Source: Escherichia coli
Lineage (GTDB): Bacteria; Pseudomonadota; Gammaproteobacteria; Enterobacterales; Enterobacteriaceae
Strand: one strand, 5' to 3'
Assembly: GCF_046105845.1 (NCBI RefSeq)
Contig: NZ_CP151004.1
Length of the DNA stretch: 64,000 nucleotides
Shown: positions 11,596 through 60,290 of the stretch, one piece after another
Layout: each line of letters begins with the position of its first letter
How positions within the stretch are numbered: position 1 is the first letter of the stretch
The notes under the pieces: model-generated
Told to the model about the DNA's origin: nothing
Databases searched by the model: none
What the model saw: only the letters and a program-made list of their open reading frames with translations
Made by a program: the position numbers and the translations under genes

Positions 11596-13509
11596 TTACT
11601 TACGACCAGCCAGCAGTTCCAGCACTTCATCCACGCTGGTGGTGTGTGCCAGACGCTCGATGACAGTCTCATCATCCAGTGCATTGGTCAGGCTGGTGAT
11701 AACCTGAATGTGCTCGTTGTTACGGGCAGCAATACCAATCACCAGACGGGCAATGTCATCTTCTTCTTCACCGAAGCGCACGCCTTCCGGGTACTGGCAG
11801 AACACGACGCCCGTTTTGAGTACGCGATCTTTCGCTTCAACCGTACCGTGTGGCACCGCGATAGACTCACCCAGATAAGTCGGGGTCAGTTTTTCACGAT
11901 CCAGCATCGCCTGAACATATTCCGGCTCAACGTAACCGCCTTTCACCAGTTGCTCACCAGCAAAACGAATCGCTTCTTCTTTGGTGGCCGCTTTGCGACC
12001 GAGGAAGATGTTCTCCGCGCCTAGCTTGAACAGGTTAGCACTGGAATCGTCAAAGCTGTCTTTCAGACTGTCTTTCACTTTTACTTCGTTTTCAGTATGG
12101 CGCTGGGCAGCAACCAGACGTTCGGTCAGGCTGGTGTACAGGCCGCTGTCGAGGAAGTTGGTCAGCGAAATATGCTGTGCCTGCGGAACCTGGCGCATAG
12201 CGCGTTCGGTCAGGTCACGGTGAGTGATGACCAGGTCCACATCTGGCGGCAGGTTGTTGATCGCGCTGTTAGTGACCGAAATCTGCGACAGACCTGCATC
12301 CTGAATTTTCTTACGCAGCACGCCTGCGCCCATCGCACTGGAACCCATACCGGCGTCACAGGCAACGATGATTTTACGTACGTGGCTCAGGTCGTTAGTC
12401 ACATCGCCCGCAGACAGCGGGGACGCACCTTTAGACTCAGCTTTCATGTCCTGCATACGACGAGTTGCTGCTTCAATATCATCTTCTTCTTTCACTTTGC
12501 TGGTTTTCAGCAGAATGGCAGAGACAACGAAGGAGACAGCCATCGCCGCACACACACCCGCGATGTTAGCGAAATAAGCACCTTTTGGTGTCATCGCCAG
12601 TACAGCAAGGATAGAACCCGGAGATGCCGGAGAAACCAGACCACCGCCCAGGATAGTCAGCGTGAACACGCCAGTCATACCGCCGAGAATAACGGCCAGA
12701 ATCAGACGTGGATTCATCAGCACATACGGGAAGTAGATTTCGTGGATACCACCCAGGAAGTGGATGATTGCCGCACCGCCCGCAGATTGTTTAGCACTGC
12801 CACGACCAAAGAACATGTACGCCAGCAGCACGCCCATACCTGGACCTGGGTTAGCTTCAATCAGGAAGAAGATGGATTTACCCAGTTCATGGGACTGCTG
12901 AATACCCAGCGGCGAGAAGATACCGTGGTTAATGGCGTTGTTGAGGAACAGGATTTTCGCCGGTTCAACAAAGATAGACGCCAGCGGCAGCATGTCATGG
13001 ACAACCATGAAGTTAACGCCCGCAGCCAGCATTTTGGACAGGGCTTCAACAATCGGGCCAATGCCGAGGAATGCCAGAATAGCGAGGATCATCCCGATGA
13101 TGCCAGCGGAGAAGTTATTCACCAGCATCTCAAAACCGGATTTGATCTTACCGTCTACCCAGCGGTCGAAGTGCTTAATGCACCAGCCGCCCAGCGGACC
13201 TGCAATCATAGAACCGAGGAACATCGGCATGTCTGCGCCGACGATAACGCCCATGGTGGTAATGGCACCGACTACGCCGCCACGTTCGCCGCCTACCAGC
13301 TTACCACCGGTATAACCGATCAGCAGCGGCAGGAGATAAGTGATCATCGGCCCGACCAGCTTCGCCAGCGTTTCGTTCGGTAACCACCCTGTTGGAATAA
13401 ATAACGCGGTGATGATACCCCACGCGATAAACGCGCCGATATTTGGCATCACCATGTTGCTGAGGAAACGACCAAAGCTTTGCACTTTGATCTTAATATC
13501 GGATGACAT
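11596..13509 (-). CDS. mtlA: PTS mannitol-specific EIICBA
   Basis: 637-aa product [33 protein letters not shown]...; IIC membrane domain followed by IIB and IIA domains. Confidence 0.95.
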
Positions 13510-13652
13510 AAAAACACCCCTTCTTATGTTTGCTGTCGCGCAGGCTGGAAGCCCGAGGTTTTTTGTTAATGTGGCGGCAGAGGTAGCCGGACCTTGTAGA
13601 TACTGCGAAATCTGGCACTGAATCGGTTAACTGTCCAGTCGACGGCCTTTTG

Positions 13653-13829
13653 TGTGATATCGGTCACATAAATATAGGGGGTAGAGAGGTAATTGACGTG
13701 ATACTCATCACAAAACGCTTGTGTAAAAAAGCAACAAGGCGGCGATTTTCGCTAAAAATGGCATTTAAATGTGAGTAATGTCACATTTTTGTTTTGTTGG
13801 TTTGTTGAATCTTTGTGATCTGAATCACA
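13653..13829. promoter_or_regulatory. mtl promoter region with several CRP-type sites
   Basis: TGTGA-N6-TCACA matches: tgtgatatcggtcaca (13653-13668), gtgatactcatcaca (13698-13712), tgtgagtaatgtcaca (13770-13785), tgtgatctgaatcaca (13814-13829). Confidence 0.7.
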
Positions 13830-14045
13830 AGATATTTTTTTACGGCGTTCACCTGATGTGATCTACAGCATGTTATGCCTTCGTCATAAAATCGTTATGT
13901 AACTAAGCAACTCATCACCTCTAAAAATTATTCTTTGGTGTTATGGCGAGAATCGCGAACCCGAATTATTGTCAAAATATCAGCCTGACTCCCTTCTGGC
14001 TGCCAGCCAAAAAACAACACCGATAAACGTGAATCCGAGGCAGAT

Positions 14046-14408
14046 ATGTTTCTAAACTATTTCGCGTTGGGAGTGCTGATCTTCGTCTTTCTGGTGATTT
14101 TTTATGGAATCATCGCGATACATGACATCCCTTATCTGATTGCCAAAAAGCGCAACCATCCCCATGCCGACGCTATTCATACGGCGGGCTGGGTGAGCCT
14201 GTTTACTCTGCATGTTATCTGGCCGTTTCTGTGGATCTGGGCGACGCTCTATCAACCGGAGCGTGGCTGGGGTATGCAGTCACATGTTGCGTCGCAGGAG
14301 AAAGCGACTGACCCGGAAATCGCCGCACTTTCTGACCGAATTTCCCGGCTGGAGCATCAACTCGCCGCCGAGAAAAAGACTGACTATTCCACGTTCCCGG
14401 AGATCTAA
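14046..14408 (+). CDS. yibI: YibI inner-membrane protein
   Basis: 120-aa ORF with hydrophobic N-terminal half; divergent from mtlA, followed at 3 bp by yibH. Confidence 0.75.
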
Positions 14409-14410
14409 TT

Positions 14411-15547
14411 ATGGATCTATTGATCGTTTTAACTTACGTGGCGCTGGCGTGGGCGGTCTTTAAAATCTTCCGCATTCCGGTAAATCAGTGGACGCTGGCG
14501 ACGGCGGCGCTGGGAGGCGTGTTTCTGGTGAGTGGTTTGATTTTGTTGATGAACTACAATCACCCTTACACTTTTACCGCGCAAAAGGCAGTGATTGCGA
14601 TCCCTATCACGCCACAGGTGACGGGAATTGTTACTGAAGTCACCGACAAAAATAATCAGCTTATTCAAAAGGGCGAGGTGCTTTTTAAGCTCGACCCGGT
14701 TCGTTACCAGGCGCGAGTTGACAGACTTCAGGCTGACCTGATGACGGCGACGCATAATATAAAGACGCTGCGCGCGCAGCTCACTGAAGCGCAGGCCAAC
14801 ACCACCCAGGTTTCAGCGGAGCGCGACCGTCTGTTTAAAAATTATCAACGTTACCTGAAAGGCAGCCAGGCGGCGGTGAATCCGTTCTCGGAACGTGACA
14901 TCGACGATGCGCGGCAAAACTTCCTCGCGCAGGACGCGCTGGTGAAAGGCTCGGTGGCGGAGCAGGCGCAGATCCAGAGCCAGCTCGACAGTATGGTTAA
15001 CGGCGAGCAATCGCAGATTGTGAGCTTAAGAGCGCAACTTACTGAAGCAAAATATAACCTTGAGCAGACTGTCATTCGCGCACCGAGCAATGGCTACGTC
15101 ACTCAGGTACTGATCCGCCCAGGTACATACGCCGCTGCCTTGCCGCTGCGTCCGGTGATGGTCTTCATCCCCGAGCAAAAACGGCAAATTGTCGCCCAAT
15201 TTCGGCAAAACTCGCTGTTACGTCTGAAACCCGGCGATGATGCGGAAGTGGTGTTTAACGCGCTACCTGGGCAGGTGTTCCACGGTAAACTGACCAGTAT
15301 TTTACCTGTCGTGCCAGGCGGTTCGTATCAGGCGCAAGGGGTATTGCAATCATTAACGGTCGTGCCCGGCACGGACGGTGTGCTGGGAACCATTGAACTG
15401 GACCCCAACGATGATATCGATGCTTTACCTGACGGCATCTACGCCCAGGTGGCAGTTTACTCCGACCATTTCAGCCATGTTTCGGTGATGCGGAAGGTGC
15501 TGCTGAGAATGACCAGTTGGATGCATTATCTTTATTTGGATCATTGA
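14411..15547 (+). CDS. yibH: YibH, HlyD-family membrane fusion-type protein
   Basis: 378-aa ORF with N-terminal TM segment, long coiled-coil region and C-terminal beta-barrel-like region. Confidence 0.8.
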
Positions 15548-22525: not shown

Positions 22526-23821
22526 ATGGTTATCAAATCACCTCCCACGCTGATTCCTTTATCACACTTATCGGGTGAGGAACTCCAGGCCCACCTGCGC
22601 TTTAACCGGGTTACCGATGAAAAAGGACGTTATCTACCTTTTGATGAGTTGCAGTACCGCATCAAAAAAGGAGAAAACGTCGAAGTGGCGTGGACGCTTA
22701 CCCGTCTGGCGCGCAACGCGGCGATCCAACGAATCAATTATTGCAATGAAGCGGGTGAACAGGCCGGATACAACATTACCCCGGTGATTGCAGAAGCGTG
22801 CGAGCTTGTCGACAAACGTGCTACCGCGCTGGCGCTGAAAGATCAGACTGAACGGTTACGCGGGGCCGGAGCCGAGTTAAGCCAGTTACGCCTGGAAGAG
22901 CCGATCACCAGCTCCCAGCTGGAAGGTGCGAATACTACAACGCTGGTGGCGAGAAAAATGCTGGAAACAGGGCGGTCGCCACGCACTGAAGACGAGCATA
23001 TGATTGCAGGAAATGCCCGACTGATGGCGGAAATTCCGCACTTACTCGCAGAACCGCTGACACCTGCGCTTATTCGCCAGTTACATGCCATTGGTATGGG
23101 TGGAATCAATGACGCGAAATATCGTCCGGGAGAATTTCGTGAAACAGATGATGTTGTGATCGCCGACTATGACGGCAATATTGTGCACCAACCGCCCGCT
23201 GCGGCATTGTTGCCGGAACGGCTGGAAAAAGTTTGCCAGTGGTTAAACAGCCATGAAGGGTATATTCACCCGTTAATCCGTGCCTGCATTCTGCATTTTA
23301 TGCTGGCCCATGAACATCCATTTCGCGATGGCAACGGGCGCACCAGTCGGGCACTGTTTTACTGGTATATGCTGAAATCGGGCTACGATGTTTTTAAATA
23401 TATTTCCATCAGCCGTTTTCTTCATGCTGCGCCAGTCAAATATGCTGCCAGCTACCAGTACACTGAATCAGACGGTATGGATCTGACTTATTTCCTTGAG
23501 TATCAGGCGGGTGTCATTAAACGTGCTTTGCAAAACTGGCAGCAGCATATTGATGAAATTATGCAACGAAGTGCAAAACTCGATAGTGTGCTGTTTAGCT
23601 CTGGTGTGCTTAAACGCCTGAATCCGCGCCAGGTAACGCTCCTGAATGTGATGCTCGCCAATCCGGGGAAAGAGTACACAGTTGCTGAAATTAGCGCGAG
23701 CCTGGGCGTCTCTGATAATACGGCTCGAGCTGATTTACGGACAATTGTTAAAGAAGGGTTTGCGCAAGAGAAAAGAATTAATAACCAGCAAGCAGTGTAC
23801 GTCGCACACTACCCGCTGTAG
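22526..23821 (+). CDS. Fic-domain protein (putative AMP-transferase), 431 aa, with N-terminal inhibitory-type motif and C-terminal HTH-like region
   Basis: Canonical Fic motif [12 protein letters not shown] at residues 264-275; S-x-x-x-E-G match (SSQLEG) at residues 129-134; C-terminal about 70 aa resembles a winged helix-turn-helix. Confidence 0.85.
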
Positions 23822-23928
23822 CTTTTGCCCGTAAATTCGTGATAGCCGTCGTAAAGCTGTTACCGACTGGCGAAGATTTCGCCAGCCACGTCTACCCTTG
23901 TTATACCTCACACCGCAAGGAGACGATC

Positions 23929-25467
23929 ATGACCAATAATCCCCCTTCAGCACAGATTAAGCCCGGCGAGTATGGTTTTCCTCTTAAGTTAAAAGCCCGT
24001 TATGACAACTTTATTGGCGGCGAATGGGTAGCCCCTGCCGATGGTGAGTATTACCAGAACCTGACGCCGGTGACCGGGCAGCTGCTGTGCGAAGTGGCGT
24101 CTTCGGGCAAACGAGACATCGATCTGGCGCTGGATGCTGCGCACAAAGTGAAAGATAAATGGGCGCATACCTCGGTACAGGATCGCGCGGCGATTCTATT
24201 CAAGATTGCCGATCGGATGGAGCAGAACCTCGAACTGTTGGCGACGGCAGAAACCTGGGATAACGGCAAACCCATTCGCGAAACCAGTGCTGCCGACGTG
24301 CCGCTGGCGATTGACCATTTCCGCTATTTTGCCTCGTGTATTCGGGCGCAGGAAGGCGGGATCAGTGAAGTCGATAGCGAAACCGTGGCCTATCATTTCC
24401 ACGAACCATTAGGCGTGGTGGGGCAGATTATCCCGTGGAACTTCCCGCTGCTGATGGCGAGCTGGAAAATGGCCCCTGCGCTGGCGGCGGGCAACTGCGT
24501 GGTGCTGAAACCCGCACGGCTTACCCCGCTTTCTGTACTGCTGCTAATGGAAATCGTCGGTGATTTACTGCCGCCGGGCGTGGTGAACGTGGTCAACGGC
24601 GCGGGTGGGGAAATTGGCGAATATCTGGCGACCTCGAAACGTATCGCCAAAGTGGCGTTTACCGGCTCAACGGAAGTGGGCCAACAAATTATGCAGTACG
24701 CCACGCAAAACATTATTCCGGTAACCCTGGAGCTGGGCGGCAAGTCGCCAAATATCTTCTTTGCTGACGTGATGGATGAAGAAGATGCCTTTTTCGATAA
24801 AGCGCTGGAAGGCTTTGCACTGTTTGCCTTTAACCAGGGCGAAGTTTGCACCTGTCCAAGCCGTGCTTTAGTGCAGGAGTCTATCTACGAACGCTTTATG
24901 GAACGCGCCATCCGCCGTGTCGAAAGCATTCGTAGCGGTAACCCGCTCGACAGCGTGACGCAAATGGGCGCGCAGGTATCTCACGGGCAACTGGAAACCA
25001 TCCTCAATTACATTGATATCGGCAAAAAAGAGGGCGCAGATGTGCTTACCGGCGGGCGGCGCAAGCTGCTGGAAGGCGAACTGAAAGACGGCTACTACCT
25101 CGAACCGACGATTTTGTTTGGTCAGAACAATATGCGCGTGTTCCAGGAGGAGATTTTTGGCCCGGTGCTGGCGGTAACCACCTTCAAAACGATGGACGAG
25201 GCGCTGGAGCTGGCGAATGACACGCAATATGGCCTGGGCGCGGGCGTCTGGAGCCGCAACGGTAATCTGGCCTATAAGATGGGGCGCGGCATTCAGGCCG
25301 GGCGCGTGTGGACCAACTGTTATCACGCTTACCCGGCACATGCGGCGTTTGGCGGCTACAAACAATCAGGTATCGGACGCGAAACCCATAAGATGATGCT
25401 TGAGCATTACCAGCAAACCAAGTGCCTGCTGGTGAGCTACTCGGATAAACCGTTGGGGCTGTTCTGA
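23929..25467 (+). CDS. aldB: aldehyde dehydrogenase B
   Basis: 512 aa from [17 protein letters not shown] (RBS aggag upstream); aldehyde dehydrogenase family with catalytic Cys region; the 542-aa ORF is a 5-prime extension. Confidence 0.9.
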
Positions 25468-38924: not shown

Positions 38925-39125
38925 CCCTGGCTTCCTTGTTTTTTTTGATCGCTTTTTTGGCTTAAAATTTCAATATGCGAAATCTGATTTCAAATATATC
39001 GATCGCTTTTTAACAAAGCAATCTGATTGATGAATTTCAAAAAACTTAAAAATCAAGTGGTTATAAATTATCTGTCGAGATCGTGAACTACGACACACTT
39101 TGCGCTACCATCAGGACGCGACAAA

Positions 39126-40596: not shown

Positions 40597-40694
40597 TGCC
40601 GGATGCGGCTAAAACGCCTTATCCGGCCTACAAATTCTACCAAATTCAATATATTGCAGAAATCATGTAGGCCTGATAAGCGTAGCGCATCAGG
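40597..40694. repeat. REP/BIME element (two inverted REP units)
   Basis: gccggatgcggctaaaacgccttatccggcctac and gtaggcctgataagcgtagcgcatcaggc between ysaA and avtA. Confidence 0.7.
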
Positions 40695-44162: not shown

Positions 44163-44481
44163 GGCGGATGAGTCCTTATTGCTGCGATTTCAGACAGTTT
44201 GCCAGCGATAAGCCAGACAAAACTCATCCCTGAGCGGTAAGTCCACAGGATGAGAAGCAAGGGTGAGCGATCGCGCGCAAAAAACGGCTGAATTTTGCGA
44301 TAACCCCCACATTTTCTGCGATTTAGCGCCAATCTGAATCGTTAACACGTGACATAGTTTCAGATTTGGACTATTCCTTGGGGTGCTCTTGACAGCTATT
44401 TTTGATATGATTTGAGATTCAACTCTCAAATTTGTGAAAAATATAAGGTGTTGGAATGATTAAATCCGACCAGGAGACCTG

Positions 44482-50440: not shown

Positions 50441-50805
50441 GGTGTAGGGCCTTCTGTAGTTAGAGGACAGCTTTAATAAGTAACAATCACCGCGATAAAC
50501 GTAACCAATTTTTAGCAACTAAACAGGGGAAAACAATTACAGATTTTTATCTTTCGATTACGATTTTTGGTTTATTTCTTGATTTATGACCGAGATCTTA
50601 CTTTTGTTGCGCAATTGTACTTATTGCATTTTTCTCTTCGAGGAATTACCCAGTTTCATCATTCCATTTTATTTTGCGAGCGAGCGCACACTTGTGAATT
50701 ATCTCAATAGCAGTGTGAAATAACATAATTGAGCAACTGAAAGGGAGTGCCCAATATTACGACATCATCCATCACCCGCGGCATTACCTGATTATGGAGT
50801 TCAAT
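50441..50805. promoter_or_regulatory. divergent xylFGH / xylAB control region
   Basis: Intergenic between divergent xylF and xylA; CRP-like half-sites around tgtgaattatctcaatagcagtgtgaaat; XylR and CRP binding here is established for E. coli. Confidence 0.6.
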
Positions 50806-59295: not shown

Positions 59296-59573
59296 TCGCT
59301 AAATAATACAGCAACCTTTAATAATCTTCTGATGAATAAAGATTATCTCATATATTAATTTTATGAGATTTTTTTAGGATTATATCAAGGAGAAGAAACG
59401 AACTTATTAAGCTAGAATAGCCACGGGTGCTTGAGACTGTTTGTCTCAGGTATTCACCGAAAGGCAGACAGAGAAAAGCCCCACCTGACTATAAATCAAA
59501 GTGAGGCCCCTCTATGCATAGACACCATAAGGTTAGCCTCTTACTCGTTGGAAATCAACACAGGAGGCTGGGA

Positions 59574-59726
59574 ATGCCGCAGAAATATAGATTACTTTCT
59601 TTAATAGTGATTTGTTTCACGCTTTTATTTTTCACCTGGATGATAAGAGATTCACTGTGTGAATTGCATATTAAACAGGAGAGTTATGAGCTGGCGGCGT
59701 TTTTAGCCTGCAAATTGAAAGAGTAA
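59574..59726 (+). CDS. hokA: Hok-family type I toxin (small membrane peptide)
   Basis: 50 aa MPQKYRLLSLIVICFTLLFFTWMIRDSLCELHIKQESYELAAFLACKLKE; overlapping upstream frame 59514.. corresponds to mok. Confidence 0.85.
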   Translation: MPQKYRLLSLIVICFTLLFFTWMIRDSLCELHIKQESYELAAFLACKLKE

Positions 59727-59857: not shown

Positions 59858-59888
59858 TAAAAAAATCCCCGCCAAATGGCAGGGATCT
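59858..59888 (-). terminator. rho-independent terminator of cspA
   Basis: Minus strand reads atccctgccatttggcgggga followed by T run, just downstream of the cspA stop. Confidence 0.55.
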
Positions 59889-59913
59889 TAGATTCTGTGC
59901 TTTTAAGCAGAGA

Positions 59914-60126
59914 TTACAGGCTGGTTACGTTGCCAGCTGCCGGGCCTTTAGCGCCGCTTTCGATGGTGAAGGACACTTTCTGACCTTCGTCCAGAGATTT
60001 GTAACCATCGTTCTGGATAGCAGAGAAGTGTACGAACACGTCTTTAGAGCCATCGTCAGGAGTGATGAAGCCGAAGCCTTTGTCAGCGTTGAACCATTTT
60101 ACGATACCAGTCATTTTACCGGACAT
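59914..60126 (-). CDS. cspA: major cold-shock protein
   Basis: 70 aa [37 protein letters not shown] with RNP1/RNP2 motifs. Confidence 0.95.
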
Positions 60127-60290
60127 AGTGTATTACCTTTAATAATTAAGTGTGCCTTTCGGCGATATGGCGTGCTTTACAGATTTTGAAGCGTTAAAGG
60201 AATGTGCACTACGAGGGGTATCAACGATAACTCTTGAAGAGGACTTGCCTTACTACACTGCTTTAATGGTCTGTACGTCAAACCGTTGAG
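60127..60290 (-). promoter_or_regulatory. cspA long 5-prime UTR region (cold-box / thermosensing leader)
   Basis: About 160 nt non-coding leader upstream of cspA; function from established knowledge, boundaries approximate. Confidence 0.5.

Follow-up and report, generated by a model that had tools for sequence, protein, structure and literature searches.

The interval 13653-13829 of the window (the whole 64-kb stretch of Escherichia coli DNA that was analysed) very probably represents the upstream regulatory array of the mtlADR (mannitol) operon promoter, doubling as a platform for the repressor MtlR. The CRP array of this promoter is real, strongly conserved and already described: the five-site CRP region has been known since 1995, and the spacing-dependent anchoring of MtlR was published in 2026. 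The mtlADR promoter, its approximate transcription start and its regulatory sites are now fixed in window coordinates.

The interval lies inside a 536-bp intergenic region between mtlA (- strand) and the divergent yibI (+ strand). The mtlA gene (11596-13509, - strand), the first gene of the regulated operon, is a 637-aa open reading frame (ORF); in matching E. coli records its product is given as PTS mannitol transporter IICBA. The ORF list, the K-12 alignment and the K-12 annotation identified 10353-11501 (- strand) as mtlD, coding for mannitol-1-phosphate 5-dehydrogenase. The third gene, mtlR (9766-10353, - strand), codes for a protein of 195 aa, a repressor that lacks a DNA-binding domain and attaches to pairs of CRP dimers (role from PMC13421365). 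This MtlR is identical to that of K-12 at 195/195 positions, R167 and L178 included. On the other side of the intergenic region, yibI (14046-14408, + strand) is a 120-aa ORF annotated in matching E. coli genomes. The K-12 gene order is the same (yibH, yibI | mtlA, mtlD, mtlR). ORF, annotation and a gap-free K-12 alignment all agreed that the downstream gene is mtlA, and the assignment to the mtl promoter in the preliminary description was thus upheld.

The promoter region is widespread in the species. Used as a query, 13400-14150 was matched in 5404 of 5426 complete E. coli genomes, with at least 80% query coverage in 5401. Most genomes fell in the 95-99% identity band (~98% in the sampled rows), and strain VCSW7 was 100% identical over this 751-bp stretch. 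A 596-bp stretch around the intergenic region aligned gap-free with K-12 MG1655, with 13 differences.

An exact-pattern search of the whole 64-kb window revealed three perfect TGTGA-N6-TCACA motifs, all within the interval. The expected number per 64-kb window is 0.05, and none of 100 shuffles reached three. When one mismatch was allowed, 13697-13712 was added as a fourth site; its + strand sequence is CGTGATACTCATCACA, corresponding to TGTGA-N6-TCACG in the mtlA sense. The promoter-proximal site, CRP5, occupies 13653-13668 (TGTGACCGATATCACA in the mtlA sense), with its centre at 13660.5, corresponding to -58.5, and 10/10 core bases. CRP4 (13697-13712, TGTGATGAGTATCACG in the mtlA sense) is centred 44 bp from CRP5, at 13704.5 or -102.5, and has 9/10 core bases. 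It is separated by 73 bp from CRP3 (13770-13785, TGTGACATTACTCACA in the mtlA sense; centre 13777.5 or -175.5; 10/10 core bases), and CRP3 by 44 bp from CRP2 (13814-13829, TGTGATTCAGATCACA in the mtlA sense; centre 13821.5 or -219.5; 10/10 core bases). The weak distal site CRP1 is found 43 bp from CRP2, at 13857-13872 (TGTGATCTACAGCATG on the + strand, CATGCTGTAGATCACA in the mtlA sense; centre 13864.5 or -262.5), and has 7/10 core bases. It lies outside the interval, 28 bp past 13829. The array shows the canonical CRP-N core, a two-fold symmetric 16 bp within a 22-bp site.

Four TGTGA-N6-TCACA-type sites within about 180 bp had been described before, and this proved true, with one of them counted as 9/10. 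The coordinates 13653-13829 were exact, running from the first base of motif one to the last base of motif four. The count needed a correction: four sites were seen, but the known architecture has five, and CRP1 was missed. The four listed sites, 144-320 bp 5' of mtlA, are the functionally important and cross-species conserved ones, while CRP1 is weak and poorly conserved.

The sites were scored with a symmetrised CRP matrix of 22 columns and 11.8 bits, built from 23 classical CRP sites outside mtl, among them those of lac, gal, ara, malT, deoP2 and tnaA. The training sites approximately follow the Stormo-Hartzell set; their own scores ranged from 2.7 to 18.1 bits, with a median of 13.2. The CRP3 22-mer (13767-13788) scored 20.2 bits and the CRP5 22-mer (13650-13671) 19.6 bits, ranks 1 and 2 in the window. 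CRP4 (13694-13715) followed with 14.8 bits, CRP2 (13811-13832), which has non-consensus flanks, with 11.9 bits, and CRP1 (13854-13875) with 10.9 bits. Among all positions of the 64-kb window, the five mtl sites ranked 1, 2, 4, 14 and 17. The scan proposed earlier as a check placed all five sites within or above the range of the training sites, at 10.9-20.2 bits. In random 64-kb sequence the mean maximum was 13.95 bits, with ~10.3 expected matches of at least 10 bits, and the Poisson probability of five such matches in 226 bp was ~5e-10. The K-12 versions of the five sites scored 10.8-19.3 bits. Pairs of matrix matches 43-46 bp apart were found in the 64-kb window only in the mtl array.

The best non-mtl match (50672-50693, 15.0 bits) was in the xylF-xylA intergenic region. 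Others were in the yiaK-yiaJ intergenic region (39079-39100, 13.8 bits) and upstream of malS (44293-44314 and 44410-44431, 12.9 and 11.5 bits). We take these three regions to be CRP-regulated promoters, whose known CRP sites the matches probably represent. That the matrix picks the xyl, yiaK and malS regions serves as a check of the training set.

In the K-12 mtl operator, five CRP sites are located at -262.5/-219.5/-175.5/-102.5/-58.5 from an S1-mapped start (Lee et al. 2026, NAR 54:gkag751, PMC13421365). As cited in that paper, the sites CRP1-CRP5 go back to Ramseier & Saier (1995, Microbiology 141:1901). The centre spacings in the window, 43/44/73/44 bp from CRP1 to CRP5, match this map exactly, and the four sites listed earlier can be named CRP5, CRP4, CRP3 and CRP2, because their centre spacings equal the published ones. 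The conserved-base counts also agree with those of PMC13421365, with 7/10 for CRP1 and 10/10 for CRP2 and CRP3. In the comparison with the characterised K-12 promoter, sites and spacings were the same and the core bases were 50/50 identical. Calling the array expected rather than novel was right, as the sites coincide with experimentally characterised K-12 CRP sites.

The window and K-12 share the locus, gene order, five sites, spacings, -35/-10 elements and MtlR. They are set apart only by strain-level substitutions, with 8 differences within the 226-bp array. None of the 13 K-12 differences is in a half-site; 6 are in the N6 centres of CRP3, CRP4 and CRP5. These N6 substitutions, at 13658-13663, 13702-13707 and 13775-13780, include runs of two and three adjacent changes. 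They change the matrix scores by at most 1 bit and could slightly alter CRP affinities.

Much is known about the function of these sites in K-12. CRP is required for mtl expression there, and site mutants have shown that CRP2, CRP4 and CRP5 are essential, while mutation of CRP3 alone gives a slight reduction (PMC13421365). CRP1 is dispensable and poorly occupied (PMC13421365). Binding of CRP to the K-12 sequence is cAMP-dependent, as revealed by EMSA and footprinting (PMC13421365; Ramseier & Saier 1995, as cited there). By sequence identity with K-12, CRP would be expected to bind and function in the same way in the present strain.

The core promoter was located downstream of CRP5. Its -35 hexamer, TGGACA (13632-13637, - strand), was read from the sequence and positioned from the published CRP site centres, which are numbered from the S1-mapped start. 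Its context, CTGGACAG, is conserved in Enterobacteriaceae. At a distance of 17 bp follows an extended -10 element, TGcCAGATT (13609-13617, - strand), with the TG at 13617-13616 and the hexamer CAGATT at 13614-13609; the -10 stretch GTGCCAGATT is also conserved in Enterobacteriaceae. The hexamer is weak, with 3/6 matches to TATAAT, and because of this the promoter would need an activator. A generic sigma-70 scan of 13400-14150 found one promoter-like site, in the mtlA coding sequence, and did not pick up the mtlA promoter, as expected of an activator-dependent promoter with a weak -10.

The mtlADR transcription start was placed at approximately 13601-13604 (- strand), with a nominal +1 at 13602, by subtracting 58.5 bp from the CRP5 centre at 13660.5 according to the published numbering. 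The published start is one S1 mapping, as cited in PMC13421365. Counted from the start placed here, the 5' UTR of mtlADR would be ~93 nt long. With its centre at -58.5, CRP5 is shifted 3 bp towards the -35 from -61.5, the canonical position of class I sites. Because of this 3-bp shift, a direct contact between CRP5 and the polymerase is plausible rather than proven.

Between the -35 and -10 elements, on the + strand, lies a moderately conserved Cra (FruR)-like operator, ACTGAATCGGTTAA (13617-13630). It presumably fits the Cra consensus, RSTGAAWCSNTHHW (Ramseier et al. 1995). A Cra site and repression by Cra have been reported for the mtl promoter in the literature (PMC13421365). The element at 13617-13630 is likely this site, consistent with the reported repression.

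Outside the Enterobacteriaceae, a different core promoter was observed. In Yersiniaceae, Erwiniaceae, Pectobacteriaceae and Hafnia, an extended -10 of the form TGnTAGAGT (promoter region, +41 to +50 relative to the CRP5 centre) lies 2 bp closer to CRP5 than TGcCAGATT does in Enterobacteriaceae, without a TGGACA -35.

Conservation of the array was assessed upstream of genes for MtlA relatives at 80 loci, each from a different species, with the CRP matrix run over 600 bp per locus. The scan is an independent confirmation of the published mtl operator geometry. A pair of sites 43-46 bp apart was present in 65 of 72 gammaproteobacterial mtlA upstream regions. Out of ~190 adjacent spacings at these 72 loci, 95 were exactly 44 bp and 43 exactly 73 bp. 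The exact 44/73/44 geometry was found at 38 loci from other Enterobacterales species, with genera including Escherichia, Citrobacter, Enterobacter, Cedecea, Hafnia, Serratia, Yersinia, Pantoea, Erwinia, Pectobacterium and Tatumella. Seven non-gammaproteobacterial loci (Bacillus, Sporosarcina, Pleomorphomonas, Fusobacteriales) had one weak matrix match in all.

For a footprint alignment, the 38 loci and the window (39 sequences) were stacked gap-free on the CRP5 centre. Mean pairwise identity was 0.93 in the 40 core columns, compared with 0.41 in the N6 centres and 0.45 between the sites (Mann-Whitney p 3e-10 and 1e-16, respectively, against the core columns). This pattern points to purifying selection on the half-sites, and not on the N6 or the flanks. 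The core of CRP1 had an identity of only 0.36 across the 39 sequences, and CRP1 reached at least 9 bits at 11 of the 38 loci with 44/73/44, all of them close relatives of E. coli. Its poor conservation fits the dispensability and low occupancy reported for K-12.

The array also keeps its position relative to the gene. The CRP5 centre is ~145-155 bp from the mtlA ATG in most Enterobacteriaceae, and yibI is the divergent neighbour at only 10 of the 80 loci. We conclude that the array belongs to mtlA, because the distance to mtlA is kept while the yibI neighbourhood is not.

The 43-44 bp spacings give the array its second role. MtlR has no DNA-binding domain, and CRP pairs are its anchor on the DNA (PMC13421365). 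In EMSA, MtlR supershifted CRP-DNA complexes only when two filled sites were 43-46 bp apart, with an optimum at 44-45 bp (PMC13421365). MtlR binding was created when the malK sites were stretched from 34 to 44 bp, or when the CRP3-CRP4 distance was shrunk from 73 to 44 bp (PMC13421365). The MtlR interface mutants R167E and L178A lost repression, and a 43-46 bp spacing was unique among 331 CRP-regulated units (PMC13421365). The anchoring model comes from a single 2026 study that combined EMSA, mutants and AlphaFold models (PMC13421365). The window carries the features of the mtl operator: a position 5' of mtlADR, the five-site spacing and a cognate MtlR with R167 and L178. Reading the array as a CRP activator cluster is correct but incomplete, since the 43-44 bp spacings also recruit the repressor MtlR (PMC13421365). 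We infer that the array serves activation and at the same time anchors the operon's own repressor, and that it would behave in this strain as in K-12.

The regulation could proceed as follows. When glucose is absent, cAMP-CRP would fill the mtl sites, and the weak core promoter (TGGACA, 17 bp, TGcCAGATT) would depend on CRP for its activity. CRP5, at about -58.5, would be placed for contact with RNA polymerase. CRP2-4 would also be required, in a role that is probably architectural. An MtlR dimer would bridge two CRP dimers only where these are spaced 43-46 bp apart, as in CRP4/5, CRP2/3 or CRP1/2. The bridging would block the contacts between CRP and the polymerase. Dephospho-HPr would compete for MtlR, and repression would be restored with glucose present.

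The array could also be an ordinary activator cluster, in which CRP dimers additively recruit RNA polymerase, the 43-44 bp spacings have no meaning and MtlR represses in some other way. Until 2026 this was the generally accepted view, and the preliminary description assumed it; CRP is essential for mtl expression, and multi-site class III CRP promoters are common. However, additive activation does not require spacing that is exact to the base pair, as seen here for the 44-bp distance (95 of ~190) and for 44/73/44 (38 species). Helical phasing could conserve spacing too, and conservation alone is no proof of a role of MtlR. The experimental results weigh further against additive recruitment: the EMSA supershift was limited to pairs 43-46 bp apart, the change of malK from 34 to 44 bp created MtlR binding, and both the loss of repression in R167E and L178A and the loss of recruitment in spacing mutants are already reported (PMC13421365). 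An array without an anchoring function is thus very unlikely. A role in the expression of the divergent yibI-yibH (+ strand), instead of or in addition to mtlA, is suggested by the palindromic nature of the sites, the shared 536-bp intergenic region and the short distance of 181 bp between CRP1 and the yibI start at 14046. Against this stand the fixed distance to mtlA, a geometry kept in 38 species with yibI as neighbour at 10 of 80 loci, and the sigma-70 scan, which found no promoter-like site facing yibI in the interval. We regard such a role as highly improbable, and any effect on yibI in E. coli would be at most secondary.

Short palindromes can arise randomly, and a search for repeats connected the sites with one another, so the motifs were also considered as chance matches or relics of local duplication without a binding function. 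Three perfect motifs were found against 0.05 expected, with a cluster probability of ~5e-10, which argues against chance. The repeats consist of the CRP motifs only: they are 72-75% identical across 16-18 nt, and the duplication does not reach into the flanks, which argues against such an origin. Both origins are further contradicted by half-sites that are 93% conserved next to DNA conserved at 41-45%, and such an explanation has virtually no chance of being correct. Other CRP-related operator types were rejected as well. CytR-CRP operators have tandem CRP sites ~52-53 bp apart that flank paired CytR octamers (GTTGCATT-like). Here the spacings are 43/44/73/44 bp and there is no conserved octamer pair; a single 7/8 octamer-like sequence in the CRP3-CRP4 spacer, GTTGCTTT, is not conserved across species. 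Sxy-dependent CRP-S sites (TGCGA-N6-TCGCA, with C at position 6 of the 22-bp site) do not fit, as the strong half-sites are all TGTGA/TCACA, and FNR-type sites were ruled out by the half-site sequence. In an Rfam scan that covered the whole window, the 13-14 kb region gave no match, and none was seen to an MtlS-like antisense RNA family.

The platform reading leaves a group of conserved spacer sequences to be considered. Across 39 Enterobacterales sequences, four short blocks that are not half-sites were nearly invariant, while the neighbouring bases varied. AACAAA (13806-13801 in the mtlA sense) lies 15-20 bp from the CRP2 centre and is 90-100% conserved. AAAATA (13838-13833 in the mtlA sense) flanks CRP2 on its opposite side and shows 85-100% conservation. 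Upstream of CRP4, at about 13721-13732, a run of T precedes ACAC (TTTTTTTACAC). The fourth block is a run of five C or five G in the middle of the CRP4-CRP5 spacer, at about 13675-13683; this G/C run, in one orientation or the other, extends to Aeromonas and Providencia. Lee et al. found the spacers to be mutually dissimilar, and MtlR docked with arbitrary spacer DNA as well (PMC13421365). Because arbitrary spacers support docking, MtlR does not explain the blocks. The 2026 study left the need for the far-upstream sites CRP2-4 unexplained (PMC13421365). Tentatively, and at a rather low probability, the blocks might form an undescribed layer of the mtl operator, either for the docking of a factor (alpha-CTD, Fis or an unknown protein) or for a DNA shape that remote activation by CRP2-4 requires. 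They are a small lead on how far-upstream CRP sites activate. AACAAA and AAAATA were also considered as -35 and -10 elements of a divergent or upstream promoter. This candidate was rejected by reasoning from the sequence, since TTTGTT and TATTTT on the + strand are ~25 bp apart and the position of CRP2 would fit neither -41.5 nor -61.5.

Several observations were made elsewhere in the window. The mtlA-mtlD gap (11502-11595) is 94 bp long here and ~135 bp longer in K-12 and VCSW7; the extra DNA looks like REP-type palindromic repeats. The window thus differs from VCSW7 at this gap despite the 100% identity over 751 bp near the promoter. The offset between the window and VCSW7 also shifts, from 14000 to 13813-13814, between about 14600 and 37400, with ~186 bp absent from the window. 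Three matches reached the Rfam gathering score: the cspA thermoregulator (59859-60287, - strand, 491 bits), the sok antitoxin RNA beside hokA (59425-59576, + strand, 119 bits) and the ES036 sRNA (40632-40674, + strand, 38.9 bits), the last barely over the threshold. As annotated in the closest genome, two paralogous pairs of DUF3302 and HlyD-family genes, yibI-yibH (14046-15547) and yiaW-yiaV (about 22990-24460), lie ~9 kb apart.

The mtl array resembles several known regulatory systems. In the CytR-CRP promoters (deoP2, cdd, udp and others), a repressor is likewise held between two CRP dimers by protein contact and acts as an anti-activator, a comparison also drawn by Lee et al. (PMC13421365). 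CytR, however, binds DNA through a domain of its own and has operator octamers, whereas MtlR has no such domain and the mtl sites are 43-44 bp apart. With class I and class III CRP promoters (lac, malK, pap), the mtl promoter shares a weak -10, the dependence on cAMP-CRP, and a site near -60 combined with far-upstream sites. It differs from them in its proximal site, at -58.5 compared with -61.5, and in its three far-upstream sites (-102.5 to -219.5), which are individually needed for full activation, although loss of CRP3 by itself has only a slight effect. The membrane sequestration of Mlc by EIICB(Glc) is similar in that a dephosphorylated PTS transporter captures the repressor and thereby inactivates it, but Mlc binds its own operators, whereas MtlR is anchored through CRP.
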